A DNA stretch of 60,415 bases, filler included, from Sphacelaria rigidula (Eukaryota), in assembly GCA_964200075.2 (NCBI GenBank). It is 6 parts of 6 records of this genome, joined end to end, with 100 filler letters (N's around TTAATTAATTAA, not from the genome) between each part and the next. Parts side by side here need not be neighbours in the genome. Positions count along the whole stretch, not along the records: positions 20,176 to 30,161 come from CAXNAA020007363.1; 5 more parts are not named here. The stretch is one strand, 5' to 3'. Position numbers and translations under genes: made by a program. The notes beneath the pieces were generated by a model. That model had not been told where the DNA came from. It was given only the letters and a program-made list of their open reading frames with translations, and did not search any database. The stretch's first letter is position 1, and every line of letters begins with the position of its first letter. Shown in pieces: positions 9,989-50,431 of the stretch.

Positions 9989-10088
9989 NNNNNNNNNNNN
10001 NNNNNNNNNNNNNNNNNNNNNNNNNNNNNNNNTTAATTAATTAANNNNNNNNNNNNNNNNNNNNNNNNNNNNNNNNNNNNNNNNNNNN
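9989..10088. other. artificial contig linker
   Basis: N44-TTAATTAATTAA-N44, stop codons in all six frames. Confidence 0.98.
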
Positions 10089-10181: not shown

Positions 10182-11198
10182 CTATTCCAGCCCCGACGAA
10201 GACCCCTCACATCTACCCGCACGCTCAGCGGCAGCACGCTCCTGCACTTGAACGTGGAAACTTTCCTGCAACTCCAAACCTCCTTGCAACGCACGCTTCA
10301 GTTGCGCATCGTCCAAGACATCACAGTGCCACTCCCCCGCCGATGAGGACGCCAACACCGAGAAAGACGTCCGAGGTGCACGACCAAACATCACGTGATA
10401 CGGTGTACTATCGTACCGACGGCGATATGCTGTATTTAGCGCCCATTGCACAGCGGGCAGCACGTCCACCCACTCGGTCACCTCTCGACGCTACTCGAGA
10501 AGAATATATCGAAGAGCACGAAATACTTCCTTGACCATGCGTTCGCACGTGCCGTTAGACCACGGAGAATATGCTACCGCAAAGTGGTGATCAACGTGTG
10601 ATACCTCTCGCAAGCGGGTCAAGATCGTGTTCTTGAAATGCGTGGCGGTATCACTCACCCACACACGTGACACCCCCAAAGGTTTGCACCAATTCAGCAA
10701 AGATGCAGCGGTCGAGTCAGCAGTACACACTGCTACTGGTTCCAGAGCCGCAAAGTTGCTCAAATCATCCATGATTGCCAAAATTTATCGAAACCCAGCA
10801 TCCTCCGACAAACCTTGGGAAGCTAGCGGGTCACTTTCGCCCACGTACAAGAAGTCAAAATAAACGACTTCATTCGGTGTGGTCCCATGGACCGTTTCGC
10901 CGAGCGGGCGGGGAACAACATCGCCTGCCCTCGAGTCAGCACAGTGAAGACACTGGCGGACAAATTCGCGTACATGGGTTTCTATCCCCTGCCAAGCACA
11001 AAACGCTTGCAAGCGCCTGAGCGTCGCAGCCACACCACGATGCCCGGCGTCGCGCATGTACGCGCAAATCATCAGACGTGCCTGCAATTGCTTGTCAGAC
11101 CTCGGGATCCACAAAACGTTTCGGCCACGCACATGCACACGAAACAGACCTTCATTGTACAAGATAGCAGTACCAACGTCCGACTCGGAAGATTGCAC
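10182..11198 (-). pseudogene. gypsy integrase (frameshifted)
   Basis: degenerate HHCC finger and DDE motifs across ORFs 10785-11198, 10491-10781, 10182-10481. Confidence 0.9.
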
Positions 11199-11875
11199 AT
11201 CCGCATCTTCGGCCCCATGTTGCGCTTGGCGGCAACAGATTTGGACGGCATCCAGTCATCAGGTTCACACGGACCATACACAGCCACAGCGTGCACAGGC
11301 ATTTGAATGTCAACTGTAGGCATCTGCATTACCGAACCACCCCAATGGCACTCAGATGCATACGGAAACATTGACACCTGACAATCAGGACGAGAATGGA
11401 ACAGCGTCACGGCATGAACCACCAGATCCTTCGCTGCTGCCCACGCCGGCAGCCTGCCGCCCATCCACGATGCAGCCTTCTTCGGAAACGCCATATTATC
11501 TGGGCTGGACCATCCCGCCTGCAAATTCCGTACTACCAACCCGAGCGCCAAAAGAGCCGCCGTGCACAACGCCAACCAACTCGACTTCACTGGATCGTAC
11601 CACCGCGGCGGACGCCCCAGATTTTGGATGAACACGCATGGGCTCCACGCGCGCAGGAAGATCACCCCGCAGCGCACGATGAAACACGTTGACGCGGCAA
11701 TGCAATATGCCTCGTAGGCGCTCCGCTTTTGAGACGCTGAGGCCTTTCACCACAGCATCCGCACGCTCTCCTCCAGCGCAACCTTCCGAGCAGACTCCTC
11801 TTCTGCCCGGTCCATGAACACATCCGGGCCACGCTATACTAAGCGTTCTACCGCCGCATCCCGCTCCTCGGTCAC

Positions 11876-12478
11876 CTACCTCCCAGTCTCCTGGAGAGCA
11901 TCAACCGACAAGCTCACGCGACGACTGCCCAAAAAAGCAGGCGTCTCGACACTCGAACCGGGCGACGACATTTGCGTTTTTAGGGACTCTAACAGCCGAT
12001 CATACGGATCGACTCCGAGTTGCCGAAGCGTCGGTAAGCCCAACAGAACGACACCACCCGTCCCCGGCATGACCGCGAACGATATCGGGGGTAATTTCGC
12101 TGGCCCCCAGGTAGTCCTGTACGCCAACTGTAGGGGAGTCGTACGCTCCCTGACATTTATACGTTGCCCCGATGCGGTGATGGCCTGCCGCGCCCCGAGC
12201 GAGAACGGAATGCGGATTTGCTCACCAGGAAGTAGACGCTCCAGGATCTCCACGATAAGCATCGACACGCTCGTGAAATGGGCGCCTGGATCCAACACAG
12301 CATTGACCGATACGGCTCCCCGCGCCCGTTGATTTGGGGAAAATATCTCTGCAGGGATATGTTTTTCTTGATCCTCGACCGGCACCTGCTCCGTCGACTG
12401 ATTGGTTGTGATACTCACTCGGCGCCACGGCTGCGCGTGCGGCGCAAGCATAGACGCCCCCGCTGGGGTAACCGGCAC
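11876..12478 (-). pseudogene. gypsy aspartic protease region
   Basis: VNAVLDPGA...VVLLGLPTLRQLG. Confidence 0.8.
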
Positions 12479-12595
12479 CGCCGGCGGGTACGAAGCCCCG
12501 CCCGCAGAACCAAATTACAGCGGTACTCCGGCCGACGCAGCAGCGTATCCAAATTTCAGCTGAAATCCGGCCGGCTCAGCAGCAGGCGTCTCGCC

Positions 12596-12747
12596 TTACT
12601 CTGCTGCCAGCGGCGCCGGCACCGAGCCCGACACTTGAGTGGCCGGTCCCATCTGCACCGCCCGTTGCGGAGCAGCAGCCCCTGCGGCTGAGCCGGGCCC
12701 AGAACCGGACCCCTGCTGACCCCGCTGCCCCTGCTGCCCCTGCTGCC

Positions 12748-12779
<32 letters not shown>

Positions 12780-13711
12780 GAACTCGACTGCACACCTCCA
12801 CCGCTGGAGGATCCGCCTCCGCCACCACCCCGATTACCGTTTCCTCCTTTGTGACTGCGAGGGCGCGCGGCACTTGTCTGCCCAGACTCCCCCTCGGAAG
12901 GCGTTGGGCACTTGCGTGCGGAGTGGCCTACCTGGCCACACTGAAAGCAAGTGATATTGGCGGCGGCACTGCTTGCGAATTTTGATCCGCGGTTACACGA
13001 GCTCGAAGACTGCGGCGACAAAGTGGGTGATTTCCCGAATACTTCAATTTTCCGCCATGCCTGAGCCTCAGCCACCACGGTATCCATAACTAAACATGGG
13101 TCTGACTTCCAATTGGTTTCGTGCTGTTATTTCACAAGCACGGCCTGTTTGAATTCCGCCGGTGCCAGACCCTCCACCATCGCTTTCGAGATCAGCGCAG
13201 TGGGCCCTGGACGGAATTTCCCATCGGAGGAACGATAAACCATCTCGACATTGGTATTTTCCGAAAAAGATGTCTCCAACTTTCCCATGATTGGCTCCAC
13301 TCTCTCACGCATGGTCTCCCCCTTGTGGTTCAGGGCGACAGCCTTCGCCACGGGCGCGGACGCCTGGGTTAGTTCCACCTCCGCGCCCGCCGCATGCCCT
13401 GCGTGCTTCTTGATCGCTGCAGCCAATTGCAGTGGTGTTATTGTGTTCTTCTCGTGGAATCTTCTGGCAAAAACGCGTTGGAGGGGGGTAGGCACGAGTT
13501 GCGCCACTGATACCACCTGATGCCTTACCGCACCCCTCCCTTTCGCATGCTCCACCCGCTTCTTATATTCCACATATTTCGTATAAAACGAACGAGAAGC
13601 ACAATCAGAATACAAATTCTCGTAACTGGGAGACTGCAACTCTTCTCTCAAAACAACTGGGGCTACGGTCGCCTCCGCTGGCTCTTCGGTCGGTACCTTC
13701 GTTGTCGACAC
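12596..13711 (-). pseudogene. gypsy gag with CCHC zinc knuckle (split)
   Basis: ORFs 13127-13711 and 12596-13087, CX2CX4HX4C motif. Confidence 0.85.
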
Positions 13712-14009
13712 TTCCGAGCGGACCTAATCGAAGGCTTCTGAACCTTCTTGAACTCCACAGTTCACACCTGCCTTCGTCGCCGCACCACACAGCCGTGGGG
13801 TCCTATAAACTCCCGCTGCACGCAGCTCCAGCAAGTCTCCAGTCTGGATCAATCATGGGCCAGCCGCCTTTGCAGCTACCTCAGCTTGAACCCTCCTCAC
13901 GCGTACGAAAAGCAATATGTCCGAAGCTGTCCAGACTCCTCTATACTGAAAACCTTCCAGCAGTCACTAACGATAGCACTACTAGCACGACTAGCACTAA
14001 TATCAATAT

Positions 14010-14268
14010 TGTGACGCCAGCAGGTTGCTAGGACTGCAGCGTCTAATGCTGTTGAGGGTCTCCCCAGTTCCGCTGGCCTCAGGTTTCAGTTGTTGGCCTT
14101 CACAACACATTTCATTATCCTGGAGTGCCACCCAGGCACCATCGCTTCGTAAACCACATCAGGGTATCACCCCTGTGTCCATGTCATTATCCATATCATC
14201 ACTACATATCCCAAGTCATCATCCATACCATCACTATATACTCGACGTGACGGCGTGATTTCGTCACA
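14010..14268 (-). repeat. 5' LTR
   Basis: TGTGAC...GTCACA termini upstream of gag; degenerate Met-type PBS (tgatattag) follows on the minus strand. Confidence 0.8.
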
Positions 14269-15289
14269 GATGACACTATGATGTTGTGTAATTTTTGAGA
14301 GGAATCTTCCTTCGTCTTGCCCGGTGTCAATGAAAAGTAGTATTATTCCTATGGCTAAGAATCTTTTCGCAGAATGCGAGGATGGTACCGAAGAATCCCC
14401 GGGTTTGAAAATGGCTCGGATGGAGCTGAAAAATTCCGTCTAGGATGATATTTGGGTGGGGATCACGAATCCGGTGTCGAATCTTCATAACTTTCATAAT
14501 ATGGTGCACGGTTATAGCGATACATGCCGCTTGTCGTTATATCGCCGCCGCAAAAACAAATCCCCAACAATAAATCATTTTACAAACGCCTGTTGGCATA
14601 CATGTATGTACACTAATCCTCTGACAAACAGATGGAGTTTCTATATGTGGTGCACCGTGTGTTGGTTCGAACCAGCGTACATGATTCAAAGGCACTCGCC
14701 GCCTCCCGTAACAACTGGGCCTTGCGGCCCAGCCTGAGACCGACTCATTCCAACGCACTTCCCAACGTGGGTTTTCGTCTGATCAACAGTCTGAGTGGCT
14801 CTACTCCCCCTAAATCGGCCAAGCGGAATTGTTACAGAGGGGATATAATGGCCCCGTACAAAAGGTCATAGGGTAATACGATTGCGGGTCTCCCAAACCA
14901 CCTTCAGCCCAATGACGATTTATAAAAGAGAAAGAAGCTAATCTGCCTGCTTGGCGCGCACACGGTCAGAGAAAAGAACGATCGTAAACCATTGCTATCC
15001 GAGGGCAACATCGGTATATCGTCTCACGATAACTGAACTGCACTCCACCATTGCTGACCGCTGAATACGACACCACCCATCCTCCACCAAGGATGGACCC
15101 ACATGCTAAACGCAGTGCTCTTTGCGTGCATTCCTGCTGCCATTGGACTCGCCAAGCAAGATCAATCCGTGACGTGGGGTTATTGCATGTTACTGTAGCC
15201 GTGGTGAACTAGAATAGGGGGTTCTAGGATGTCTTGCGGAGAGGATGAATCCATCTAGTCCACACGAGGCCATTCGGCTCGTATTTGAA

Positions 15290-15485
15290 ACTCCTTTGTC
15301 GTGATTTTAATCCTCTTGAGGGTAGAGTGATCCTCCGGAGGATGAACATACCCTCTAGAGGGTATTGCATCCCTACTTCCGGTCATAAAACGAATTCTCT
15401 GGAAGGACAGAATTCCCTTGAGCACATAATTCTACTGAGGGTGCCTCTGCGGAAATTTGAGGAAACGATAATCTCCAGGGTATAA
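15290..15485. repeat. about 20-bp periodic CCTCNNGAGG palindrome array ending in a CCAGGGTATAA terminus
   Basis: cctcttgagg 15312, cctccggagg 15332, cctctagagg 15352; end motif also at 48511-48521. Confidence 0.5.
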
Positions 15486-16773
15486 ATTCACCTCCGGAGT
15501 TTGCCCTACATCAAAACTCTGGGCGACATTTGTGTCCTAAGTGCCTCCAGGGCACCTTTGAGACCCCAGCAATCTTGTAAAGTATAGACTATCACCCAAA
15601 AATATGTATAACCCATCGTTCACAGATCGAACCATGCAAACCCCAAAACACTTATTCCCAACTACCACCGACTAATGCCAAGATAGCCCCCCTACAAAAA
15701 GTGCACCGGAGACCGTCCGGCAACCCGGCTGCGATTCCACTATTGGGCTCGTTTACAGCAACTTCGCCCACATGAGAGGCGTGTAGCAGTGCGAAATCAG
15801 CTATGATGCCCAAATGAGTCGCGTCGGGCAGCAAGAAACCAGCTCTAACGGCATTTATGAGTATCGCCTCCGTGCACGTCTTTGGCCGGTTTGGGGGGGG
15901 GGCTATCTCGGCAGCAGTCCACCAGAACCCTGCAGCCAAGGGCATGAGTTGGGCACAGGGATATAGATACACACTGCCGTGGTTGGGCTTGTGGGTGGAA
16001 ACTTGCGCATCTTTTTTCATGGTCGCATCATTGCGTGGCGACAGAACCACGCGGAGTATAGGGTGGGAAATAACCGGCTTATTGCATGTACACTCATCAT
16101 GGAGAGTGCAAGCCGTACAAAGCTGCACGTTGTTCAAGTCCTTTTCACGTCGCACTGAAGGTGGAGAACATATAAGGCCTCCGGTGTCTGTACTGTACTT
16201 TTCCCGTTTACCTTTCACGCCCTACTTGCTGTGCTGCAGTTGTGCGCGTATGCTGCAAGAATGCGTGTGTAAACTGCAGTTTCTGACGGTATATAACACC
16301 CCCATATATCAAAGTAAGCTGCAGGCATCCACATTGTGTAGCCATACGTAGCGCACATACCGCGCTAACTCTGCAGTATATGGCACCGCACGTATTTGCA
16401 CGGTATAGCACTGCTCTGCATGGTATTGTACAGTCCAGTTGCAATGGGGTTACGGTGCTGTGTATGGCACGCACAAGCTCACTAGGCAAGGCAGGGGGCC
16501 AGTCAACAGACTGAACAGCCAAGCCAGACAACAAGACACCGCCTCACACAGATGTGTCCAGAAGATACCAGAATATAACGTGCAGGTACGATGCTATCAC
16601 TCCTTTGATTGCTTGGTCTCAATCTTACGATATTCGATCTCTTTAATCCAGTCTCTCAATCCAATCAGTCTCACCGTTGTTAGACTTCTTTGCTGGAAGA
16701 AGGGAGTAGATGACGGTGATGGTAGGGAGTGTGGCTTGGTTTGTCCAAAGGCAAACCAAACCGTCACCATTTC

Positions 16774-16915
16774 TGTCATATACAAATTCACACTCGTACC
16801 TGACCAACTCTGAACAGACCTGCAGTCTCAGAAACACCAGAAATGCAATATCAAGCCGGACTCATCAACGGGTCTGAGGCGTCACGACAATCAGGCTAAC
16901 ACGCTCCTCATGACA
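16774..16915 (-). repeat. 3' LTR
   Basis: TGTCAT...ATGACA termini, preceded on the minus strand by purine-rich gggtggg (PPT-like). Confidence 0.6.
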
Positions 16916-18074
16916 CTGACCCACCCAGACGATCCTTTATTACAGCCGCGAGGATTTTATCCTCAAAGCAGCGATTTTTTTTTCTTTACTCGTAAAGTCA
17001 TGAGCTGCTAATGAAACATACCTAAAGAAACATCCCCGTACACATATCCACACCTAAGATAAGGGAAGCGTATACTGCTTCGAGGAGCAGAAAAACTGCT
17101 TCGAAACGCGTAAACACAAAATGCTTCTGCGTGCTAGCAAAACGAAGGGGGGAAAACAGGGAGGTACAACAGGGAGCAGAGGTTCAACCTGAGAGGAATC
17201 GAAGAGAAAAAATGGCAAGATCAGTATGCAACCAACGCATGTTGGTCGGAAGCAAAATCTGAAAGTCGGTGATCCAGGGAGATCGAGCGCCAGCCGGAAG
17301 GGGATACTAGAGCTCCAGTAGTCGCAGGGGGTGGGTGGCTTCAGTAGTTCTTCGATCGTCGTCCGATGGAGGTAGTCACGTTGTGGATGTCGTAGAGTAG
17401 TGTCCTAGTGGAGGAGGGAGGGCAAACAAATACTAAAGAAGGGGGGAAAAGCTGCTGCGAAGGAGCGTGGTTTAAGGCCGTGCGTGGACGTCGTGGGTGT
17501 GATCGATGTTGAGCTGGAGACCGCGGCGAAGTCCTTCGGACTTGAGGGGTTGAAGGCACCAGGACCCGCGTGGTGCATATGGGCTGGTGGTGTATAGTGC
17601 TGGCCGGAGCTTAAGCTGTATGGGTCCAGGGCCATCGATGAAGCGCACGATGTATGTGTCGGCAGAAACCAGGTTAGCGGAGTGGGTCTGGCCCAGCCAC
17701 CAGAGGTTGTCGCTGCCTTTGAACCGAAGGTAGCTGACCTTAGGCAGTATTCGCTGGTTTGTCAAGAACTTTGTCGTACAAGCCTTGGTGGGTACAAGTT
17801 CGTAACCATCGGCGACGAAGCGTAGTCCCTGATCGCGGTGAAGTTCGCGGGCTGCTGCGCCACGACACATGTTGCGATATTTTTTGTTGTGAGCAACATG
17901 CTGATGTCGAGATTGCACCCATTACAGGAGGATTGCACGGCGGTGCAATTGAAGGTCGGATTCACGTTTCCAAGACGCTCTCCGGAGACCGTGCCAGTGT
18001 GTCTTATACGTGACAGCTATTTTGTTACCTCAACCACGAGTTATCTGGTGGTCGGAGATGGTGAACACGGTCAA

Positions 18075-19364
18075 TCAGAGGGACTGCTCCGTCACGTCGT
18101 CAGGGGTAACATGGTAGGACGGGGACTTGGTAGAGTGGCTGTTGAGACCGTACCGTGTGAGTCCGGCAGGCAGGTACTTGGGCATGTCGCTTGTATCGTG
18201 CGGGTTCGTGCAGGGTTTGCATCTGTGCACGGAGACGCGGGGTTCGGTGTCCTTGCCCTGGAAGTGGCGAGGCAGGTCGAGATAGAGCAGTTTGTCACCA
18301 ACGGGTTTATCATCTAGTGATGATGGCGATGGTACGACTATCAGAATCTTGAATGGTCCTGTCCAATTGAGGGACAATTTTGTTTTTATAATTCTTCTGT
18401 TGGCTGCCTTGCTGATGTCTTGGCGGATGGTCGACAACCTGTTGTAGATCCAAACCTAATCACCAACTTTCCAGTTGGGGCGTTTGTGCATGAGGTTGTA
18501 GAGAGCAGTGTTAGATCTCTCCAGGCGCGAGGCGTTGATTGCGTGTTGTTCGCGCACGAGGGTAAATGCTTTGCGTTGTCGTGAATGTGCCAGCTCGTGG
18601 TAGGATATCTGATCCTGATCCAATCCTTGGTGGCCATCGAACGCTTGTCGCTCAAACACGGTGATTGGCAGCCGAGGGTAACGTCCAAGATGGAGTTCGT
18701 TCGGGGAAAGGCCTGTGGCGGCGCTAACCGAGTTGTTGTAGAACAACATGGTGTGCGAGAGATGTAGGTCCCAGTCATTTTGGCGGTCATTGACAACCAT
18801 AGAGAGCATCTGGGCCATGATGTGATGAACTCCTTCGGTACCACCGTTACCGTTCGGGTGGTAGGCGCTCGTGACAATTTTGCGGATGCCCAGGAGCTTG
18901 TAAAGCTCATCAGAGAAATCTGAGCAAAATTGCTGACCATTGTCTGAAAGGAGGCGCTTCGGGCAACCGTAGTGCTTAATGTAGTCGTGGACCAATATGT
19001 CGGCCGTTCCGGCGGCAGTGAAATCTGCAGCGGTTACCGCGTACATGGACGCGTGGCGGCTGAAGCGGTCAGTGAAGAGTAAGATGTAGGTGTTGCCGCG
19101 ACCTGTGATCGGTAGAGGACCAAAGTAGTCAAAGGACACAAGGTGGCCTGGCGCGTTCGGGGGTCTCATATAGATGGCGGGCCAGCGTACTGTCTGTCGT
19201 GAAGTCTTTCGGGCTTGGCATTTGAAGCATCGCCGAATCCAGAAGCGGGTGGAAACTTCCATGCCAACCCACCGGTAGAAGCGTTCCAATAGCGCTAGGG
19301 TGCGGGTGATGCCAAGGTGACATGACAAGTCTGTGAGACAGCCTTTCATGACCCAGGTGCGCAT
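18075..19364 (-). pseudogene. gypsy integrase core and GPY/F region
   Basis: 302-aa ORF 18456-19364 with DDE motifs, continued after a stop by 18075-18437. Confidence 0.92.
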
Positions 19365-20075
19365 TAATCGTGGAACACATGTGCGCGTTGCTTCGCCATC
19401 TAGTAATCATGCTTGGCGTCCCGTGGTTGAGACCGAAATTGCGCCCGTCAAAGACGTGGGCCGACGCACGAGTAGTTGTACACCTTCATCCGTAGTAAGA
19501 AGGGTGTCTTCACGCACGAGTCCGTACACGTCAGAGATATCTGGTGGGGGCAGTGTGCCAACCGGGGTCAGAAGGGCGGATGGAAAAGGGCCTGGACAGT
19601 CAAGTTGTAAGTACCGGATGGCTGCGCGACTTACGGGTTCCGCGTTTTGTTCGCGAGCCCAATCACGGTGAGAGTAGCTGACGAGGAACTCGCGTAGCTG
19701 ATCTCCCGCTGGCGAACCGACCAAACATGGTCGGGTAGGCAGTGGGGAAATAGGCGACGGGGCAGAAATGCCGACGTCAATACCTGCCCCGGGAGCAGGA
19801 GCTAAGTCGTCAGCTCCATGCTCGCGAGCGGTAGATGTTGGTGGCGCCGTTTTGGGCGGCGGGGCTGTATCAGTGCGCGGCGAAGATTGTCCGCGGCGCG
19901 AGGTGCACGTTTCAGGAATTGTCGCGGAGCGTTGCGTGCTGAACCGTGGGGCCGGTGCTGCATCGCTCGTGGAATTTGCAGGTGGTATCGGTAGCGGCGG
20001 GGCACTCGGGGGGGTGGTGCGGGCGGCAGACTGAGAGCGCGTATTGTCGGAGATTAGGTGGGTGACCGAAGGGGT

Positions 20076-20175
20076 NNNNNNNNNNNNNNNNNNNNNNNNN
20101 NNNNNNNNNNNNNNNNNNNTTAATTAATTAANNNNNNNNNNNNNNNNNNNNNNNNNNNNNNNNNNNNNNNNNNNN
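20076..20175. other. artificial contig linker
   Basis: N44-TTAATTAATTAA-N44. Confidence 0.98.
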
Positions 20176-20238
20176 GAAAGGGATGCGTGGTCAATGGTCA
20201 AATGACTAAGGCAAGCAACAAATGAGTACGCCCCCCCC
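20176..20238 (+). mobile_element. 3' end of a C-tract-associated non-LTR element
   Basis: gaaagggatgcgtggtcaatggtcaaatgactaaggcaagcaacaaatgagtacg followed by a C run; also at 22814, 25137 and 35951(-). Confidence 0.8.
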
Positions 20239-20341
20239 TATCGTAGGATGACTCCTCTGTCAAGAAGTATCCAATATCATATCACTTCCCCAACAAAACT
20301 GGAACGTTGTTGGTCGTAGCTCACCCTGGTGCATACCGCAG

Positions 20342-22513
20342 TGGTGGTTTTAGAAGAGAAGGTGATGCGCTTGCACAACGTCGTGCCTCTTGTGCTGCGT
20401 CAGATGCTCAACCTGGAGCGCAAAAAACCAAAGGAGTGCGAGGGAACAGGAGTAGACCGACAAGACGACGACGATGACGAAGGCTTTGACGGTAGGATAC
20501 TACCGCAAAGTGTATAGCTCAACGCTGTCGCGTTTAAAGCATTACGGAATACAGCTCCACATTAGCTGGCCTTTTAGTTCCTACTGTGCTGCCAATGGGG
20601 TAGTGCTCGTGGAGGCATTTCATCACAATAATATAACTCCATCGCTTTCGACCACTTTCGCGCTTTTACTTGGCCCTCGAGCACTGCGATCGTGCGTTTA
20701 TCCGATCTCGATTTTGTCGTCATGCTGAAGCTTTGCTTTCATCTTTAGCGACACATTCTACTCTGGAAGAAACCACCTGCACCGGAGATATTGAAACTTG
20801 CTGCCGTTATGACCACATGCACGGGTACATACGATGCAGTATTGTCGATGGCACAGTTTAAGGCACATCGATTGGAGACACGGATCCAATTCCGGTCACA
20901 TTACCTCCTGCTTCGCGACCCAATCATCACATGGTAACACACACACACATTGCACACACCTGTCTTCCTTCACTACTGCGCCTTGAACGAAGCCATTCAC
21001 CATTCAACACCGTGGAATTCAAGCGTCCATACCCGTATGTGTTCCTCTTGTCGGTACCATCGGCACAGGGCGGGAACATCATCACTCCAACGCCATGTCG
21101 GACACTCCAAGCGCCGGCGACGCGAGTACTGTAGTTGGGGACACCGACGACCGAGAACACGCGTCCAAGACAAATCCTAGAAGACCTACCAGTGAGTGCA
21201 CAGAAAATCGGCTGGATTAGATCATCATGCGAAGAAGACCTAATTGATGCCTACAAGAGGCTGTCTGCAGAGGACGAAGCACCCGTTTCGCATCAACTTC
21301 AGTACACCACACCGCCGTTCTTCAGTTTCTCGTCATACTTTCAAGCCGCCCGCTTCCTCGGGACTAGTTTGTAGTCATGAGGGATCAAGCCGTACCTCTC
21401 TTCCCCGGTACATGCTTGCCATTTTCGTGTAGCAAGTTGAATCAGCACCCCCGCATCGCGTCGGCTTACGTCGAAATGTTTTTGCCCCTCACGTCCTCAT
21501 TTCCTCACGTTTTCAGAGATAGACACCAAAATCTGCTCGAAACCCCGCATCTATCGTGATGCGAACCGGCAACGTTCCACACCTGCAGGGCGCGGTGGCC
21601 ATTGTAACATGAATATATCGCTCCACTGTAGCACAACAGCAACTTCGAAAGTACGCTGTAGAGGTGGAAGCCCGTACGCAGAGAAACTGAAGAGTGTGAA
21701 CCAAGAGGATTCCTTACACATAGCCGACCCCAACTATTGCCCATTTCACGACCACATTCATGAAGAATTAAGTGCATGTTGCTTTAAGATAGTGTAGCCT
21801 TGTTCAGCCCCGACTGTTCAGCTCACCATTTGTTGTGGCGTCTAGGCGCCAGGCGAACGATCTTATAGCGGAACGCGGAGTCAACGGAAGGGGAGATGTC
21901 ACCATGCACCGGAGTATTTCGGATTTCCTCGTTAGTCAAGCTGCTCCACGCTGAGTACCCATGGTCATCTTTACAACTGCGACGGTTTTTGACTTCACAT
22001 CCCTTCCTCGCTCTTTCATTCTGCAGCGGGACGATCCACCGGAGCCAGCACGAGTCCGAGGGTTACCCGAAACCGCTCAGATGCTGAGTCGGAAGATTCT
22101 CGCCGAGCACACTTTCGGGTGGCTTTCCCCCCCAACATTAAGGCTGGAGGAAAGGTAGGCAAGTGCTTCGGTGTTTGAAGGGTTCCAAGCTTACCATCAA
22201 TCGTAGAGATGTGCGTAATTATTTCAAGTACACAGACTGGTTTCACGGAGAAGAATGGAAAAAGTGTCTTCGTAGCTTTCTCCGAGATATATGATCAGCA
22301 AACAAACACTTTAAGATGCCCGCTTGATGCTGCCAACAAGACGGACGCAACACCATGGCCGCACTCGGGCTGCGAGGTACTGGTTCATCAGAGAACGAAG
22401 AATACACAAACTCGACCAAACTCAGCCGTTTCTGGACGACATCCAGTCACTCTCTGTCCGTTTGTGGGGAAAACTGTAATTTTCCAATTCAGGAATTTGA
22501 GAACTTCAGCAGA
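20342..22513 (+). CDS. possible upstream exons of the TIR-like gene (about 20342-20491, 22027-22154, 22493-22513)
   Basis: CAG acceptors and GTAGG/GTAAG donors around open segments; reading frames ambiguous. Confidence 0.35.
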
Positions 22514-22813
22514 GTAAGCAGCAGCACGAGACGAAATCCATGACGGTGGCTCAATTTGGAGTCTCGAGTCTCAACTTGATATGTTTCGACATAAAGGGGC
22601 AAGAAACTGTAATAAAACATCGAATTTCCTAAAGTGCAATGACTTAAAAGACAACAACGAAGAGTAACAAATAGGCGATTGACATATTTGCAATTCATAT
22701 CTGAAGGTTTTCACAAGGTAAATCACAAGAACCGTGGAGATACAGGCGAAGCAGTCAAAGTTTTTTGCGACCGAACTGCTTTTTTCTTTCCCCCTCTTTT
22801 TTCCCTCCCCTAC

Positions 22814-22888
22814 TGCTCCGTCTCGAAAGGGATGCGTGGTCAATGGTCAAATGACTAAGGCAAGCAACAAATGAGTACGCCCCCCCCC
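22814..22888 (+). mobile_element. short 3' copy of the C-tract-associated non-LTR element
   Basis: identical core; flanked by duplicated CCCCTACT (22807-22814, 22885-22892). Confidence 0.85.
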
Positions 22889-23341
22889 TACTCTCCCTCG
22901 GGTTTTCGAGTTCAGATGTGAACCTTCACACGTGTCTGCGCATTTGACATGGAGAGGGAAAACATCTGCTTCGAAATAGCGAACTTTGCCGGTGTCTCGA
23001 TCGTACATGCGGAAAAGGACGATTACTTGTGGATATCTACAATTCATACGTGTGTGAAAAAATTCATATCATAATCCGTATACCCGCGGAGAAACAGTCA
23101 AATTAGTAATATATATATATATATATATTTCTGCTCTTCCATCCTGGGTCTTATGGGCTTCGACTGACATTTTCAAACGCGTGTGCCCCTGAGACTATAA
23201 CGAGCTCGTGGCTGCGATTTATTTTGAGTTTTCGAGTCTCGACCTATGGCATGTGGCGCTAGACTTTCCACAGTATTTCGAAATCCTAGTCGCGAAAATG
23301 TTGCCTGCTGTACGTGCCGTACACTCACCACCTCGCGTCAG

Positions 23342-23597
23342 CCTCGTCACAACCACCCCCCGCTACGTCCCCTCTTTCGACTCGAAAATGACACAGTGGC
23401 ACACAATCACTGCCTACCTGTACGAGCCAGCGGCGGCCAGGGCGGTGCGCCATGAGCACACAGCGCGATCAACAGTCTCTCATGACAGCAATGTGTCGGG
23501 CGCGCGTGGGTCCTTCTCAGTGGAAGATACCGTGGAGGATACGGACAGGGCCATCCCACCGGGAACGGAAGTCGTTATCCGTCCTCGGTTCCCGCGG
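23342..23597 (+). CDS. exon, N-terminal part of the beta-sandwich-like domain
   Basis: TTPRYV...QWHTITAYLYEP...IPPGTEVVIRPRFPR; tcag acceptor, gtgcgc donor. Confidence 0.7.
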
Positions 23598-26500
23598 GTG
23601 CGCTGAGCGTTTCCTTCCCGTTTTTTCTTTTCGTATCCCTCTCTTGTTTGTAGATGCATGCTGTGTCCAGTACAGCACGTGGGCGCAAATTTGACGTAGT
23701 ACTGGGGGCGTACAGTGCGCGAGAGGCTGCTACCAAAGTTAGGCTATGCTGGTATCCCAAGTACTTCCCTTTCAGTTGAGTTTAGATGAAATCAGATCTG
23801 TCGCTCAATCTACATATTCCCCAGAGTGCCAGTCATGTTACCCACCGGATATCATTGAATGCCTGTATCCAAGCACTCGTCGTATGTGCTGCGATGTACT
23901 GGAAGTTTCCCACTGAGAGCGGTTTGCAGATTAAACGACCCACCCTGCGACGGATATCGCACGACGGCTCTGTCCCCGCTCCTCCCCGTCCTTCGCCCCC
24001 CTTCTGACGATACGCGCGCCGATCCGTCGAAGACTTGCTGCGTAAACCCCGTCCACGCCTCGGTGAAATGGATGAGAGACGTTCACTCGCTGTCTTTCGA
24101 GGTGCGGCCGCCTGCCTCGGCCAGCAGCGGTACGGTCGCGGGCAGCGTGGACTTCTACGTCGGCCCCGTGTTAATAGGGCAAGCACACGTGGAGATGGCA
24201 GTGGTGACGTCTAATGAGAGAGCTGAAGAACAGGACGTGTTAGGACCCGCTGCGAAGGCAAGCCGCACAATTCGCTGTCGTAGATCAAAGGGGATACGCC
24301 TCCCCCTCCCCCCCTCCCCTCGCTGATTTTTTTCTTAGCCTCGACTTTTCCTCGATGACTACGGTGTTAGCGACGCCGATTTCGGTATCATTCGGAAGAT
24401 ATCATCTGAACCTGTCTATGCACAAGATATATCGGCAGTGTAAGTAGGATAGTTTCTGTCGAGAAATTGAGGATAGAAAAACCCATCACGAAGAGAGTCA
24501 TGTCCCCTATACTGTACTTACTCTAAGGCACATGCAGCGAAAGATAAGATGATGCTACCAAGAATCCTGTCGCTATGAGTGCCTGCGTGCGATATTCAGG
24601 CCGTGATGAGCACGATTCATTTCATCACAGTGCTGGTCTTGTTGCATGATGACTGTAGACTGCGCGGTAGCTCGCACCACGTTGCTTCTCCACATGCTAC
24701 AAGACCGGCAGCTTTTGACACGCGCAGACCCCTTTTTCTGTGCACTGTCTAGACTATGGTGTGACCTTGGAACTTTCCGTCGGCTTTACCATTGCCCGTC
24801 GGGAGAAATGAAAAAACGGCAAGTTCATGTTTCGCTCAACTCGCTGAATCCCACGCCCCATTTCACTTTGTTACACATGAAACAGCAACCGCAAGCGCCC
24901 ATTATCACGACCATCTCCAAGAAAAGAAATACAATGTCTCTTGTGGTACACCATAGCCTCGGTGTGAGCAAGGCAACATCTGAGCCGTGCTTGCGCCAAA
25001 AAAGTGCATGAAGCAAGTACAGGAGCTGATGTTTTGGCGGGGACATTTTCTGATTCAAAGACGGGAGCTGGCATGGCCTTGGAAATATAAGTGCAAGTTT
25101 CCGATCGAAGGAGCAATCTGACAACGCCCCACCCCATGCTACGTCTCGAAAGGGATACGTGGTAAATGGTCACGACTAAGGCAAACAACAAATGAGTACT
25201 CCCCCCCGCCCCCCCGGCGCGCCCCCTTCATAAATGGCGCGCTGTTCAACTAGAACAGCCCTTTATGCCCTCGAAGCACGAGCTTCTCTTGTTCCTTCCA
25301 CTATTATTTGGTTTTTATTTATTACGTTCCTTCTATGTTGAGGATAATGTAGCTGTGAGTTTACCGTTGATGTATCCCCGTCACAGATCCGCAGCGTAGC
25401 AGCAGGAAAACTGAACTCACCGTTCGGCAAACCGTGCTTGCGTGATACTCGAAGCATAAGAAGGATCTCACGCCTGACGAGCACACCTCTGATTAATATG
25501 CCTGAATAACACAAGTGCGTCGATCCCAAAGTTTTGTGCAGATGCCGTTGTAATGCATATCGTGGTTTATACTGGCTTGCATCGCCTGTGTGTAATCTGC
25601 TACGTCCATCAACCGATCATCAAGGTCTTCGACACGGCGTACGTGTGCTACGCGCCATCGGACGAGGCACTTCTACTTCCCTGCCTCAAAAACTTCAACA
25701 ACCTAGGCGTGGCCAACCTAACCTGGCGCCCCGAGAGCGGATCGGAGAAGGAAACGAAGGATCTCATTCGCGAGTCTTCCGTGTTTCAGATATGCTGGTC
25801 TGGCGCTGCGCAGGTGAGAGGAGCAATACTTTATGTGCAGGTATCGTATACTCTACTGGTTGGGTGGGATTTCGTGTCAACTAATTGATTTGATAAAGGC
25901 TGGTGATAGAATTTGTGTGCCTGGTTGAATGGTTTCACCCTCCAATGGCGTGCGCTGAGGCAGGAGAAACAGGAGGGCGCGCGGGAGGCGGGGTACGTGG
26001 ACGGGAGTCAATTCAGAACGCTGCCAGCGGGCTTATGGTCATGCTGCTAGACTAAAGCTGATATGGGCAGAAAGCCGAGTGCCGCCGCGACGATTGTCTC
26101 AATAACCGACGCAATGCTTCGCTTCGGCCAGGCAAAACACTGGAAAGCGTTCGCTAGAAAACGTTGGGTGCTTACCACACATGTGAAGTTGATAGAAACG
26201 ACTCACTACATTTGTTCGCTACACTCAACGCCCTTGCCACCATGAACACACTTCTCGAAAGTCAAGTAGCCGTGTCAAGAACGAGCTGAAGTACGCTGCT
26301 TCCCTGGCTAAGACCGGATCCATGGCCGTCCGCGGCATCTACTGGGACACGGCAATGACCGCTACCGCTGTGAGGACGGACCACGGTCTGGTATTTCCGG
26401 TTCGGCTGCACAACACCTTTCTGCTGGACGAGGCGTGCGGTGCCCTAGGTGTGTTGCACGGAAAACGACGAGTTGGCCGTAGTGGGTAGGACGGAAGCGT

Positions 26501-29332
26501 TCGGTCACGGCATAACTCCTTCGTGCAGCAGCAGGGTTTATCTCAGTTCGTATCCCCAAACCCACGGTTGAAATATGCTTGATTTGACTGCGAACACTGA
26601 TATTCGGATCTTTAGTGAAAGCTGACAGTCCCGAGCGCTCCTAGTGTGTGCAGAAGACGTTTTTGTTCAAAATTGGCGCCGCAGGCGCCGATTCGAGGTC
26701 TTGCGGCGCACACTGTGCCTAGGGTACCCTTCCCACCCCCCTTGCCCGAGGGTTGTCGTGTGCCTAGGGCTGAGGTTGGGGGCAGGGTTAGCGTCAGCAT
26801 TGGCGTTACTTTGAAAAAATGTCAACCATGGATAAAAAATACGAACGGGGGCAAGTCCACCTCCTGTGCAGGCTCCCCATCTTACGACGTCGATAAGAGT
26901 GACCTGTTGAGCTGCGGTTCGGTTCGGTTTGGGGTTCTCAGATAATGTTGATGAAAATACTTTTATTTTGCAAACAAGTGCATAAAAAGAGATTGCCGAC
27001 ATAAAATTATTCAAGGCGTCCCACCCCAGCATTCTTCCCCACCTTCCCTCTCCAGCTCCTCGAGACATCAATGGCCACTTGCCAACGTGTGTTCACCGGT
27101 CTGCCCACCGCTAATAGATCTTTAGCTGCCCCTTTTAACCTTGGCCGGTGTTCTCAACACTGTGGGCCGACCTCTGCCCAGAACCAAAGTTACATCTCAC
27201 ACCGCGGCCCACCAATTCCGCTGTCAAACCGTTGTTGCATATACTCTCTTCAATGAACTCGTAGCGCGAGTATCGACAGGGGCGGGGATGTCACCCCAAG
27301 AGAAGGTTAGCCAAGGCACGTCGTCTCCTCCACTGACCCCCAAACGGAACGCTAGCACTTTAACTTCCGATAGATCTTTCAGAGACGAGCATGTTAATGG
27401 GGGTGACGGCCGGAGTGGACCAGGAGAGGGTATGGGGAAGGTGGTGATGCCCAAACCAACGTGCACGCAAGCGGTGGAGCAGACGCGTGGCCATATTTCC
27501 AGGTTGCGCGAGATGGTGAGGCAGTGTTCCAGCAGAAAATATCGTAGCATGACGAACGTTTTGATGGGACTAGAATTCTAAGGAAGAAATGAAGGATTTC
27601 TGCGTGGGTTGCATGATACAGCACACCGGCTGGCTTTGGACATCAAGAACGTTACTCTAGAGATTCGCTAGTGTTGTTCCTGTGCGCTAGAACTCTCGCA
27701 TTGGCAGCACCATGCATGGTCGGCAGGATGCCGCGATGCCTCCCTAACCACGTTTTTCCAGACGTCAAGCAGTGCTGCAACTAGCCGTGTGAATGCGGGG
27801 CCCATGGCATCCCCGCAAAACGCATAACCTGGATTTTTTCTTCACATTATAGAGCACTTACGATGCGGTAGTATATACGTTCTGAAGGTTTGCCTTCGTT
27901 GTTCACGTAACCCCACGGGGTTGTGAAATACACGCATCTCGTAGAGAGCGATCATCGAGGTACGAGCGCGATTCCCCACCCTACCCAGCATCCGGCATCT
28001 TTACAGCGACACTCGTTATCCCTTGGAGGTGTAGATGGGAGATGCCAGTGCGGTAGACATTCCGCGTATCGTGTGGCTCTACCCCGCGGACGAAGGCAGC
28101 GGCACTAGCACAGGCCTGACGACCGACGCGTGGCTGAAGAAACCAGTTCGGCTCACGTTCTTGTGTCCTGTCTCCATGAAGCCGGCGAGGTGAGCTTAGA
28201 GCTTCAACAGTTCAACAGTCCAAAAACATCAAATTTGTACTTTTGAAACTACCGATTCACACTGACCACGCATCAGAGTCCATTTTTCACAATGTTGGGC
28301 AGGTGTGAGCATCCCATGCCACCCCTTCCCCAACCGTCCGCTCAAGGTGTACGGAGAAATTTCACGAGTGATTTAGAGGCAAATATCACGGGAGGATCTC
28401 TGGGAAGCGAGTGGTAAAGCATAGCGTCCCAGCGTCTTGCGTACTGGTATGTTTCCGGTAGACCTAAAGCTTTGGGTGAGAATCTATGATTGACAGGATG
28501 ACGGCTTGATTTTAGACTGGAGAAAGTTCTGAGAGCTTTTATGGTGTGGGGCAGGTGAGCAGTGGACCCCAGCTCGTCCAGAACGTGTTCTTGTCGAAAT
28601 GGGCGCCTGCGGCGTCGATTTGAGGTCTGCCAACGCACAGTTTGCCTAGGGGAACCTATGCACCCCCCTTGCCCGAGGGTCTCGAACGCCTTGGGTCGGG
28701 ATCAGGGTTGGGGTTAGTGTTATCATAGTGTTAGTGTTAGTTTGTTCGAAAAAATCAACCATAGATTTTCGCCCATAGCTTTAGGTCGTCTCTCTGTTTC
28801 CCCCCGATCGACCACAATCGTGGTATGGTTATCCCGCCGCCTCCGCCGACATTTCCTCCGAGCTATACCTAAGGGCAACAAACCTAGATGGGATACCGTA
28901 CGCTGAGCAGGGATGACATTCTAGACAATACAAAGCGCTCTGGTGCGGTTGGCGAGCGGACGCTCTGGGACTCAAAATATGGTACGAGTGGTGAACGAGG
29001 ACCGAGCACATATATACATATGCGTCCGAATGCACGAAACCGCTCAGCAGAATGCAGCTTGCCAACAAGCGGGACAAGTTCGCACTCATTTCCAACATGA
29101 ATCACACAAAACATACGCATCTTGGCTGTACCTGGTGGCCTATTGTGCTAGGTGCGGACAGGACGGGAAGGGGTACCTTATTACTCTGCCTCGCGGTTGG
29201 GGCAGCAAAATAGGCATGGCCCTGAAAATTGGCGTCATGATTGCCGCAGCCGCATCCGATACGGGAGAGCTAGCCGATTTACCCGTAGTGACTTGCAGCG
29301 GCGAAGAATCTTCGGCTGAGTGGCAAGGGCAG
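23342..29332 (+). CDS. multi-exon gene: beta-sandwich-like domain + TIR-like domain + ROCO-C-terminal-like module (partial)
   Basis: exons 23342-23597, 24033-24257 (GC donor), 25625-25813, 26262-26448, 27265-27515, 28035-28189, 29152-29332 join in frame with intron phases 0,0,0,1,0,2. Confidence 0.8.
24033..24257 (+). CDS. exon, beta-sandwich-like domain
   Basis: CCVNPVHASVKWMRDVHSLSFEV...GSVDFYVGPVLIGQAHVEMAV; AAG/GCAAGC donor. Confidence 0.7.
25137..25207 (+). mobile_element. short 3' copy of the C-tract-associated non-LTR element (intronic)
   Basis: diverged copy with the same 5' start as the 22814 copy; C-rich flanks. Confidence 0.8.
25625..25813 (+). CDS. exon, TIR-like domain N-half
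   Basis: VFDTAYVCYAPSD...LIRESSVFQICWSGAAQ; gtgaga donor. Confidence 0.8.
26262..26448 (+). CDS. exon, TIR-like domain C-half
   Basis: SSSRVKNELKYAASL...VRGIYWD; absent from the ORF track. Confidence 0.78.
26535..26860 (+). mobile_element. MITE, family B (MULE-like), intronic
   Basis: gttcgtat...ggttga / tcaaccatgg...atacgaac inverted ends; core cccccttgcccgaggg shared with 28457-28792 and 43858-44260. Confidence 0.7.
27265..27515 (+). CDS. exon, linker/helical region
   Basis: in-phase open segment ending ATG/GTGAGG. Confidence 0.65.
28035..28189 (+). CDS. exon, ROCO-C-terminal-like module
   Basis: IPRIVWLYP...WLKKPVRLTFLCPVSMKP; gtgagc donor. Confidence 0.75.
28457..28792 (+). mobile_element. 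MITE, family B (MULE-like), intronic
   Basis: 33-bp TIR gacctaaagct...tga; about 9-bp TSD tatgtttcc/tctgtttcc; internal gggtta/gtgtta tract. Confidence 0.8.
29152..29332 (+). CDS. exon, ROCO-C-terminal-like module
   Basis: CGQDGKGYLITLPRGWGSKIGMALKIGVMIAAAA; gtgcgt donor. Confidence 0.75.
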
Positions 29333-30055
29333 GTGCGTTTCTACTAATACGAAGTGGAACAATCCGGGTTATGTGCGATATTTTGTGAAAGTTGCTGCTT
29401 ACACTGCATTGGCGTCTACCCGATTTTACAGAGTACCACGCGGCTCACGTAGTAATTGCCCGCAACTCATCGAGCCTAAGCGCTCGTAGCGTTCGGCTTC
29501 GTAGCGCATGCAGAGTTGATACGAACAAGCTCTTTATTGAGGGATGTCAACTGGGACGTGAAGTATAATAGCGGATAGACAAGAAGACGCGTGATTACAT
29601 ATACAGCCTTCACAGGTCGTTTTGTATGAAGAACCTTCCGCAGATCGTGAAGATCGTCGCGAGAGGATCCCAGCGTCCTAAGTGACAAGTCGACGAATAC
29701 CTGTATCAGTCATCATAAAAAAAGCCCTTGATATAACGGTAGCTGTGATGACGGGCACAGTAGCCGTTTGTTTCCTGCAAGAATCACGGTCGAGCCCGCC
29801 CGCGACACAATGTTTCAAATACCAAAGCTGACACCATAAAGCTCTTATTATTCCAGGTTTACCAGGAACACACAAGATTACCACCAAAGGTTGAGCGCCG
29901 CAGTTTTTACTGACTTGTAACTTGTTCATAGCCTAGCACGGAACGGTGACGGTGACACTAGATAATATCATTCCCCACGTTCATGGCAATCCAGTTCAAC
30001 GTAGAAACGTAAGGATCATCGCAAAAATTGACGCTGCATGATACATGTACTTCCC

Positions 30056-30126
30056 GCGCCCCGGTGGTGGAATGATCCGACTATCGCCATTAGGATGGAG
30101 AGAACGGGGGTTCGATTCTCGATGCG
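30056..30126 (+). other. tRNA-like head (SINE 5' end or tRNA pseudogene)
   Basis: A-box-like tggtggaatga and B-box ggttcgattc at tRNA spacing; stems imperfect. Confidence 0.4.
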
Positions 30127-30161
30127 TTGGGTTTTTTCTTCGTAGTGTATGATTTCCACCG

Positions 30162-30261
30162 NNNNNNNNNNNNNNNNNNNNNNNNNNNNNNNNNNNNNNN
30201 NNNNNTTAATTAATTAANNNNNNNNNNNNNNNNNNNNNNNNNNNNNNNNNNNNNNNNNNNN
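30162..30261. other. artificial contig linker
   Basis: N44-TTAATTAATTAA-N44. Confidence 0.98.
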
Positions 30262-35950: not shown

Positions 35951-36175
35951 GGGCGGGGGGGGAGGGGGCGTACTCATTTGTTGCTTGCCTTAGTCATTTG
36001 ACCATTGACCACGCATCCTTTCCCTGACGGAGCACCGTTGCTTCTCCTAGTAGAGTCACCTTCAATATTCCGGCGCTCATCACGTTTTTTGCATACATTG
36101 CACAAAAACCTTTTGCATATCTTATCCCCGTCCTGTTTCGCCGTCTCTGGCCACCATCTATCTCCTAGTATAGTA
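35951..36175 (-). mobile_element. longer 3' copy of the C-tract-associated non-LTR element
   Basis: encodes ILGDRWWPETAKQDGDKICKRFLCNVCKKR...KGCVVNGQMTKASNK*; C tracts on both sides (minus strand). Confidence 0.85.
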
Positions 36176-40246: not shown

Positions 40247-40346
40247 NNNNNNNNNNNNNNNNNNNNNNNNNNNNNNNNNNNNNNNNNNNNTTAATTAATT
40301 AANNNNNNNNNNNNNNNNNNNNNNNNNNNNNNNNNNNNNNNNNNNN
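40247..40346. other. artificial contig linker
   Basis: N44-TTAATTAATTAA-N44. Confidence 0.98.
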
Positions 40347-50331: not shown

Positions 50332-50431
50332 NNNNNNNNNNNNNNNNNNNNNNNNNNNNNNNNNNNNNNNNNNNNTTAATTAATTAANNNNNNNNNNNNN
50401 NNNNNNNNNNNNNNNNNNNNNNNNNNNNNNN
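50332..50431. other. artificial contig linker
   Basis: N44-TTAATTAATTAA-N44. Confidence 0.98.

Follow-up and report, generated by a model that had tools for sequence, protein, structure and literature searches.

A 60,415-nucleotide stretch of DNA of the brown alga Sphacelaria rigidula (assembly GCA_964200075.2), hereafter the window, raises the question of whether it harbours a spliced gene for a TIR protein of bacterial type, and what such a protein might do in a brown alga. The window joins six records of the genome, with 100 filler letters between the parts, and the locus in question lies on the part from CAXNAA020007363.1 (positions 20,176-30,161). The first-pass annotation of this DNA had proposed a hidden multi-exon gene with one open frame, and this was borne out by spliced contigs and by a stop-free frame of 1728 bases (576 codons): positions 20404-29332 of the plus strand hold a real, spliced and transcribed brown-alga gene, of which ten exons can be joined. 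We consider it close to certain that the gene, the architecture described below and the homology of its central domain to TIR domains are all correct.

The ten-exon model has AG at every acceptor, GT at nine donors and GC at the remaining one; the window as a whole is eukaryotic, with GT-AG introns. When the letters of the joined exons were shuffled 20,000 times, none of the shuffled sequences was free of stops. The boundaries first proposed at 25625, 26262-26448, 28035-28189 and 29332 all hold in the gene model. The exon previously thought to begin at 23342 starts at 23397, behind an AG at 23395-96 (X1 record 1), and the seven exons of the first-pass annotation are present but not the whole, as three further exons lie upstream (exons 1-3 in Table 1).

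Eight sequencing runs (X1-X8), all from one organism, share words with the window. The evidence for splicing comes from X1-X3, which together with X4 belong to one study; their contigs, and those of run X5, were placed on positions 20176-30161. The RNA nature of X1-X4 is only a guess, which speaks against reading their contigs as transcripts, and stretches that no contig covers carry no evidential weight. These four runs contain 18-23 % of the sampled window words, approximately the share of exons in the stretch, compared with 34-98 % for X5-X8. Contigs of the DNA run X5 are colinear with the genome across the gene, whereas those of X1-X3 match it in pieces and leave the introns empty. After shifting for letters common to both sides, the contigs define the junctions 21191/22027, 22154/23397, 24257/25625 (GC-AG), 25813/26262, 26448/27265 and 28189/29152. 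X3 record 11 runs without gaps over 24032-24254, 25622-25811, 26260-26445 and 27262-27582, 28050-28187 and 29150-29333/5 are found together in X1 record 4 and again in X2 record 8, X1 record 1 covers 23395-23587 and 24032-24254, and X3 record 10 covers 21068-21191 and 22027-22152. Five of the junction-defining coordinates for which a check against RNA had been advised are therefore directly seen in contigs of the presumed-RNA runs X1-X3. The GC-AG intron occupies 24258-25624 with the donor GCAAGC, and spliced contigs in X2 and X3 agree on it.

The situation was less clear at two places. No contig bridges the junction 27515/28035, which is implied by an AG acceptor, phase and homology. The X1 and X2 contigs stop 5-7 letters past 27515, and X3 record 11 retains the intron after exon 8 (27516-27582), with a stop at 27579-81. 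This intron-retaining form, whose frequency is not readable from contigs, would yield a protein that ends after the TIR domain and the linker and lacks the C-terminal domain. The second place is the end of exon 4, which X1 record 1 leaves ten bases early (GT at 23588), joining 23587 to 24032 with 8 unplaced letters; no reading of this junction keeps the frame. We considered a micro-exon as the source of the 8 letters, but none of the four 8-base candidates flanked by AG and GT in the intron restores the frame. Both the open frame and the unbroken match to orthologues support 23597/24033 as the coding junction.

The central domain, its bacterial relatives and its candidate active site

Direct searches did not recognise a TIR domain. 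No Pfam TIR family was found at E ≤ 10 in seven single-exon translations. The TIR exons had no phmmer matches among PDB sequences other than chance ones of WD40 type. A tblastn search of plasmids with exon 6 gave seven records, colicin or TonB receptor sequences at chance level. In a language-model look-up the best matches of exon 6 were all TIR families (0.88-0.90), which we took as a lead only.

A search with exon 10 led to P0005, an 878-residue 'unnamed protein product' of Ectocarpus sp. 12, and residues 242-867 of this protein served as the query of a transitive phmmer search against 1.84 billion protein representatives. The search resulted in 1320 proteins at E ≤ 0.001, including 148 at E ≤ 1e-10, and many of these matches (250-1400 amino acids) cover query positions 7-255, i.e. 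a beta-sandwich and the TIR region, with 23-33 % identity and E-values of 1e-11 to 1e-19. Nine of ten scanned matches contain Pfam TIR_2 (PF13676) where the match ends, in its final ~105 residues, at 43.5-102.3 bits (cut-off 28); the tenth is a homologue from Chrysoparadoxa australica, in which Pfam finds ankyrin only. We aligned the P0005 part with 29 bacterial-type (non-algal) proteins (alignment A2, 30 rows). Its TIR part is invariant at FQxxWS and at one Ser, Glu, Ala and Trp each, and the upstream half shows several invariant Pro and Gly positions; the motifs from which the TIR domain had initially been recognised are conserved motifs of the family in this alignment. A profile of the 29 non-algal rows matched the spliced protein of the window with 160.8 bits over 280 residues, and a profile of the TIR columns alone, from the same 29 proteins, matched exons 6+7 with 50.7 bits. 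The algal proteins are only 21-27 % identical to the bacterial-type members.

The fold was predicted with AlphaFold2 for the P0005 part, using alignment A2 (predicted local distance difference test, pLDDT, 79; predicted template modelling score 0.74). Foldseek matched the second half of the model to the TIR domain of RPS4 (E 3e-5, prob 1.0). VIA-align, run on the best 985 chains from Foldseek, placed model residues 160-285 on AbTir with Z 12.8 and a root-mean-square deviation (rmsd) of 2.7 over 116 aligned residues, followed by SPARTA TIR-APAZ (12.7), IL-1RAcPb (12.6) and then Roq1, RPS4, RUN1, SARM1 and MyD88. TIR entries make up 46 of the 50 matches listed, the other four being folds of nucleoside deoxyribosyltransferase type. 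This region of the orthologue is thus predicted to adopt the flavodoxin-like TIR fold.

Several results weigh against a TIR domain in the window protein. Neither full-length P0005 nor the single exons contain a Pfam TIR family at E ≤ 10, the A2 profile has no matches among PDB sequences at E ≤ 0.01, and the fold is that predicted for the Ectocarpus orthologue, not for the protein of the window, with the last 30 residues below pLDDT 50 and the last helix and strand of the TIR model at low confidence. Because of the transitive homology to TIR_2 proteins and the fold match, Pfam notwithstanding, the reading of the central domain as a putative TIR domain of the bacterial kind that standard domain searches miss holds, on tests that are indirect. 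The first-pass annotation had asked for a TIR profile or fold match; Pfam gave none, but the family profile and the fold both matched, and its proposal of a bacterial-type TIR module is upheld by the TIR_2-bearing relatives, the profile match of the spliced protein and the TIR fold of the orthologue model.

The upstream beta-rich segment is predicted to be an Ig-like sandwich. Foldseek related the first half of the two-domain model to MSP domains, pilus chaperones and complement MG domains (E 1e-4 to 3e-4, prob ~1.0, TM (target) 0.35-0.54), and no Pfam family covers the sandwich region in the bacterial members scanned. To see how far the combination extends, one genome per prokaryote species was scanned with a pattern centred on FQxxWS, and 387 of 393 candidate stretches were confirmed as the sandwich-TIR module. 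The beta-rich domain that had been likened to one preceding TIR in some bacterial proteins is hence this predicted Ig-like sandwich, paired with TIR in the 387 bacterial stretches. These are spread over Chloroflexota (mostly Anaerolineae), Acidobacteriota, Planctomycetota, Gemmatimonadota, Pseudomonadota, Nitrospirota, Cyanobacteriota, Bacillota and Zixiibacteriota. All nine long bacterial frames have TIR_2 above the cut-off, and the module is C-terminal in six of them; the parts that precede it in the nine frames are TPR-CHAT, HEAT repeats, an Hsp70-like ATPase, Peptidase_C25, a response-regulator/sigma-54 activator, PASTA-CARDB and a kinase. These data show that sandwich and TIR form one module, widespread in bacteria behind varied sensor-like N-termini. 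Other fusion parts in loci L001-L080 are pentapeptide, HU-like and a second TIR, and the C25 part is caspase-like. The module looks like a shared effector behind varied sensors, as in conflict systems, judging from these fusions. The five bacterial members searched gave weak TIR-like matches only in PADLOC, with the family unnamed there, and no match in NCBIfam; bacterial sandwich-TIR is an unnamed family whose proteins are labelled 'hypothetical'.

NAD+ (nicotinamide adenine dinucleotide) cleavage is common among bacterial TIR_2 proteins, and an aromatic residue one helix turn before the catalytic Glu often stacks on the nicotinamide. In our alignments, one column holds Glu in 29/29 bacterial-type and 5/5 brown-alga rows (window codon 26283-85), and from the knowledge of SARM1, plant and bacterial TIRs we take it to be the catalytic position. 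Of the 45 columns with at least 90 % conservation across the 29 bacterial-type rows, 26 are retained in the window and 24-26 in the algal proteins. Retained in the window are all sandwich positions but one, the Asp after strand 1, FQxWS, then Ser, Val and Glu in the helix that follows, and R-x-YW in strand 4. These counts also tell against an enzyme. The window has lost the strand-1 Ser, a loop Asp (by deletion), both Gly and Trp from the loop behind strand 2, a Trp that follows the Glu, and the Pro-rich motif at the C-terminus; four positions before the Glu the alga has Arg, compared with Tyr in the bacterial consensus. To the same side belongs the Gln that Chrysoparadoxa has in place of the Glu, which means that activity would not be a fixed property of the eukaryote clade. 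The protein is a candidate NAD-cleaving immune or stress protein, and we place NAD+ cleavage itself a shade below an even call.

The alternative that survives best, although we find it rather unlikely, is that the TIR domain is a non-enzymatic scaffold and the protein an adaptor working through TIR-TIR and ankyrin contacts, like the MyD88-type TIRs of animals, without cleaving NAD+. The 19 of 45 strongly conserved columns changed in the window, including loop residues and the aromatic one four before the Glu, would suit such an adaptor, as would the Gln of Chrysoparadoxa and the failure of Pfam TIR_2 to recognise the algal sequences; moreover, the adaptor TIRs MyD88 and IL-1RAcP come near the enzymes in the fold comparison (Z 11-12.6). 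The retention of the Glu, of FQxxWS and of the Ser before the helix in all five brown-alga rows argues for an enzyme instead, as does the fact that, by sequence, its closest relatives are the bacterial TIR_2 proteins, among which cleavage is common.

Orthologues, C-terminal domain and origin

With exon 6 as query, a single frame of 162 amino acids was found in a Logan contig; it is 83 % identical and the likeness ends at the exon end. In two relatives the likeness stops at exon borders. Residues 236-790 of P0005 retrieved four proteins including P0005 itself, from Ectocarpus, Scytosiphon promiscuus, Hapterophycus canaliculatus (partial) and one EukProt record, and the counterparts are 66-69 % alike over these residues and 68-73 % in the full-length alignment. 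The full-length orthologues (Ectocarpus, Scytosiphon and the EukProt record) have about 880 amino acids. The window protein is 52-53 % identical (P0005: 52.6 %) to residues 129-690 of P0005 and P0007, and its branch in the trees lies outside those of the four Ectocarpales. Because of this identity and branching, the window gene looks like the orthologue in a more distant brown alga, and the conservation of the gene fits purifying selection.

The only Pfam domains in P0005 are ankyrin repeats at residues ~6-140. Such repeats (PF12796, PF00023) are present in the orthologues P0005 and P0007-P0010, and the window has only the last ~25 residues of the region, in 20404-20491. The layout shown by the orthologues is ankyrin repeats, an acidic/Ser-rich linker, the Ig-like beta-sandwich, TIR, a linker and a C-terminal domain of ~235 residues. 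The first-pass annotation knew this architecture from no described system; databases do contain it, as full-length orthologues with N-terminal ankyrin repeats are deposited there without a name. Our literature searches gave no paper on this family; the supplementary tables of a 2026 TIR atlas based on EukProt may list it.

The ends of the gene are not covered by the ten exons. Contig sequence continues beyond both, by at least 51 letters upstream of exon 1 and at least 456 downstream of exon 10. Counting against a complete gene here, the exons for orthologue residues 1-127 (ankyrin) and 691-878 were not found in the 60-kilobase (kb) window using tblastn with word size 2 and two profiles, nothing rising above noise for either part. 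As the contigs extend past both ends while these exons go undetected, the gene is either incompletely contained in the window or interrupted by very long introns. It had been suggested that the termini lie on neighbouring contigs: transcripts do run past both ends, but with the exons undetected in 60 kb it is not simply a matter of neighbouring contigs. An alternative is that the window copy is truncated or decaying, severed by transposons from its ankyrin exons and its 3′ half, with non-productive transcripts. Besides the undetected exons, a gypsy-type retroelement just upstream (~10.8-20.1 kb), the frame-breaking contig junction and the retained intron ending in a stop are in line with it. 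We nevertheless regard decay as improbable: there are 576 stop-free codons over ten exons with intact splice sites, the unplaced contig letters mean that further exons exist, and the sequence conservation is consistent with purifying selection.

The C-terminal domain extends over P0005 residues ~578-813 according to local phmmer, and the window encodes its first half (profile positions 15-114 of 232). Its relatives, in which it is likewise placed C-terminally, are ankyrin-kinase proteins, plain kinases and marine metagenome proteins; the same domain is found in LRR-EF-hand-kinase proteins of the diatom Cylindrotheca closterium and in SAM-containing proteins of Aureococcus anophagefferens. No Pfam family covers it in P0005 (E ≤ 10) or in ten relatives. 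A model built on the stored relative P0159 had no fold match, reaching at best E 0.28 in Foldseek and Z 3.1 in VIA-align among 48,161 chains, though with a pLDDT of 64 the model is weak and does not imply a new fold; look-alikes from the Atlas were uninformative (best 0.82, recognition 1553). By sequence, the tail of the protein is an apparently uncharacterised domain common to ochrophyte kinase, LRR and ankyrin proteins. The first-pass annotation had called it ROCO-like, which has to be withdrawn as neither P0005 nor the ten domain relatives contain Roc or COR, and the domain itself matches no Pfam family and, in its model, no known fold. A protein of ROCO type (Roc GTPase/COR), or a C-terminal domain from the ROCO family, is extremely improbable in view of the absence of Roc/COR from P0005 at E ≤ 10, from the ten relatives at E ≤ 0.01 and from the single exons and of the unmatched model, even if the domain follows ankyrin, LRR and kinase domains, all of which occur in LRRK-type ROCO proteins as well, and PMC8307928 reports many LRR-ROCO genes in brown algae.

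To place the eukaryote sequences, we built trees from the 161 rows covering most of the module, which comprise the window, 79 of the 80 loci and 81 of the 162 stored proteins; the stored metagenome proteins are nameless and some are possibly eukaryotic. FastTree, applied to all 161 rows, set the six from eukaryotes (the window, Chrysoparadoxa and four Ectocarpales) on one side of a branch with support 99. A quick IQ-TREE tree of 58 rows (6 eukaryote, 36 loci and 16 random stored proteins) gave the same split, also with support 99. Weakening the case for a transfer, the trees are unrooted and the eukaryote branch is long (1.3 changes per column), so that they give neither donor nor direction. 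Since the module is wide-ranging in bacteria and narrow in eukaryotes, transfer from bacteria is the simpler reading: the module probably passed from bacteria to the ancestor of brown algae and Chrysoparadoxa, with introns gained later. The single eukaryote clade within a bacterial/metagenomic family agrees with the earlier suggestion of a horizontally derived protein that acquired introns, the direction being drawn from the distribution only.

Exons and repeats

The features of the window are collected in Table 1.

Table 1. Exons of the sandwich-TIR gene and repeated or masked sequences, in positions of the window.
Feature	Positions	Strand	Content	Basis
Exon 1 (in view)	20404..20491	+	end of ankyrin region and acidic linker; ~ orthologue residues 128-155	tblastn and profile matches; AG acceptor, GT donor, phase; 139 unplaced letters in X3 record 10 upstream of 21068
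Exon 2	21069..21191	+	Ser/Arg-rich linker	X3 record 10 links to exon 3; splice sites; profile match
Exon 3	22027..22154	+	linker end and beta-sandwich strand 1	X3 record 10; donor at 22155; matches to orthologues and bacterial-type profile
Exon 4	23397..23597	+	beta-sandwich domain	X1 record 1, X2 record 5; family profile 64.3 bits
Exon 5	24033..24257	+	second half of beta-sandwich domain, then GC-AG intron	X1 record 1, X2 record 6, X3 record 11; 111.4 bits; GC donor
Exon 6	25625..25813	+	putative TIR first half (strands 1-3), FQxxWS motif at end	spliced contigs; 83 %-identical relative; language-model look-alikes; TIR-only profile
Exon 7	26262..26448	+	putative TIR second half; conserved Glu codon 26283-26285	spliced contigs; exons 6+7 50.7 bits on TIR-only profile; Glu column invariant
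Exon 8	27265..27515	+	low-complexity linker and helix leading to C-terminal domain	X1 record 2, X2 record 7, X3 record 11; profile match 27435-27521
Exon 9	28035..28189	+	start of uncharacterised C-terminal domain	C-domain profile 53.5 bits; X1 record 4 and X2 record 8 span the 3′ junction; 5′ edge from AG, phase, homology
Exon 10	29152..29332	+	C-terminal domain to about the middle	77.7 bits, profile positions 55-114 of 232; X1 record 4, X2 record 8, X3 record 13; relatives P0002-P0006
Gypsy-type element	10785-20123	-	long terminal repeat retroelement	long frames with integrase-, reverse-transcriptase- and gag-like text
Copia-type element	~58298-59874	-		
22-base repeat core	20208-20229, 22857-22878, 25178-25199 (+); 35970-35991 (-)		C-run end	4 copies (0 expected)
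Look-alike segments	~26640-26800, ~28570-28720		~150 bases each, in two introns	by eye
Paired 44-base N runs	9989-10088, 20076-20175, 30162-30261, 40247-40346, 50332-50431			~10 kb steps
N run	32776-85		10 N	

The gypsy-type element lies upstream of exon 1 and is possibly inside an intron of the gene. The 22-base core belongs to a short repeat of very high copy number that has a C run at its end. Three of its copies are situated in introns or flanks of the gene, and bins with this repeat reach a word depth of 1e4 to 1e6 in the DNA run, compared with ~66 elsewhere. The two look-alike segments have depths of 236 and 43,490 against the same ~66, which suggests a dispersed element resembling a miniature inverted-repeat transposable element. 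The regularly spaced N runs look like masking, not assembly gaps, and a short exon could hide in the pair upstream of exon 1.

Proposed function

The best overall explanation, to which we give about equal weight for and against, is a stress or immune effector consisting of a bacterial-derived sandwich-TIR module with an ankyrin front. The protein would be cytosolic and of the SARM1 or bacterial-TIR type. Its ankyrin repeats might hold it inactive or bind a partner; upon activation the TIR domains would assemble and the conserved Glu (codon 26283-85) would cleave NAD+, with NAD+ depletion or a nucleotide signal as the outcome. The C-terminal domain that ochrophyte kinases also have may serve assembly or targeting. 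In its most far-reaching form, which as a whole we think doubtful, the proposal comprises, in brown algae, which are reported to lack immune receptors of plant or animal type, a conserved single-copy TIR effector invisible to Pfam and derived from a bacterial conflict module that long ago passed into the lineage of brown algae and Chrysoparadoxa, an ankyrin-gated, NAD+-cleaving switch for death or signalling, a new ochrophyte output domain shared with kinases, and a bacterial module that is itself a new widespread family of defence effectors.

Known systems resemble the algal protein in different parts. It is closest to the bacterial sandwich + TIR_2 proteins, with which it aligns end to end over the two-domain module, sharing the invariant motifs of both domains; the bacterial member L007 also has a repeat-type N-terminus (HEAT) before the module. 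The algal proteins differ in falling below the Pfam TIR_2 threshold and in having introns, ankyrin repeats and a eukaryotic C-terminal domain. SARM1 (ARM - SAM - TIR) similarly has a repeat domain before a TIR of bacterial-like ancestry, with a fold Z of 10-11 and probably a Glu at the aligned helix position, whereas the algal protein lacks SAM, has an Ig-like sandwich before TIR and another C-terminal domain, and shows no sequence match to PDB TIRs. AbTir and SPARTA TIR-APAZ are the best structural matches (Z 12.8 and 12.7, rmsd 2.7, 115-116 residues) but only 13-15 % identical; they are bacterial effector or defence proteins, AbTir without partners and SPARTA with APAZ/Argonaute.

Two reports bear on TIR proteins and immunity in such hosts. 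According to the main text of the 2026 preprint that presents the TIR atlas from EukProt (PMC13142454), the Dictyostelium TIR family TirBCD was gained from bacterial TIR-STING. Dictyostelium is thus an earlier example of a eukaryote that took up a bacterial TIR and retained it as an NADase under host-added regulation, though the TIR lineage and the host differ from those here. The same main text contains no terms for brown alga, Ectocarpus, stramenopile, Phaeophy-, Ochrophyt- or ankyrin. The 2021 review (PMC8307928) states that no clear orthologues of receptors from plants or animals exist in Ectocarpus, which has LRR-ROCO and NB-ARC-TPR genes in their place. These candidates share with the sandwich-TIR gene the organisms and a proposed immune role, but no domain in common was found.

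What emerges is a conserved, putative TIR protein that domain libraries have overlooked and that spans Ectocarpales, the more distant brown alga of the window and Chrysoparadoxa. It offers a concrete candidate, open to experiment, for signalling or cell death based on NAD+ in a lineage with independent complex multicellularity, which includes farmed kelps. The two-domain bacterial module, with its 387 stretches, and the C-terminal domain of ochrophyte kinases are likewise targets for functional study.

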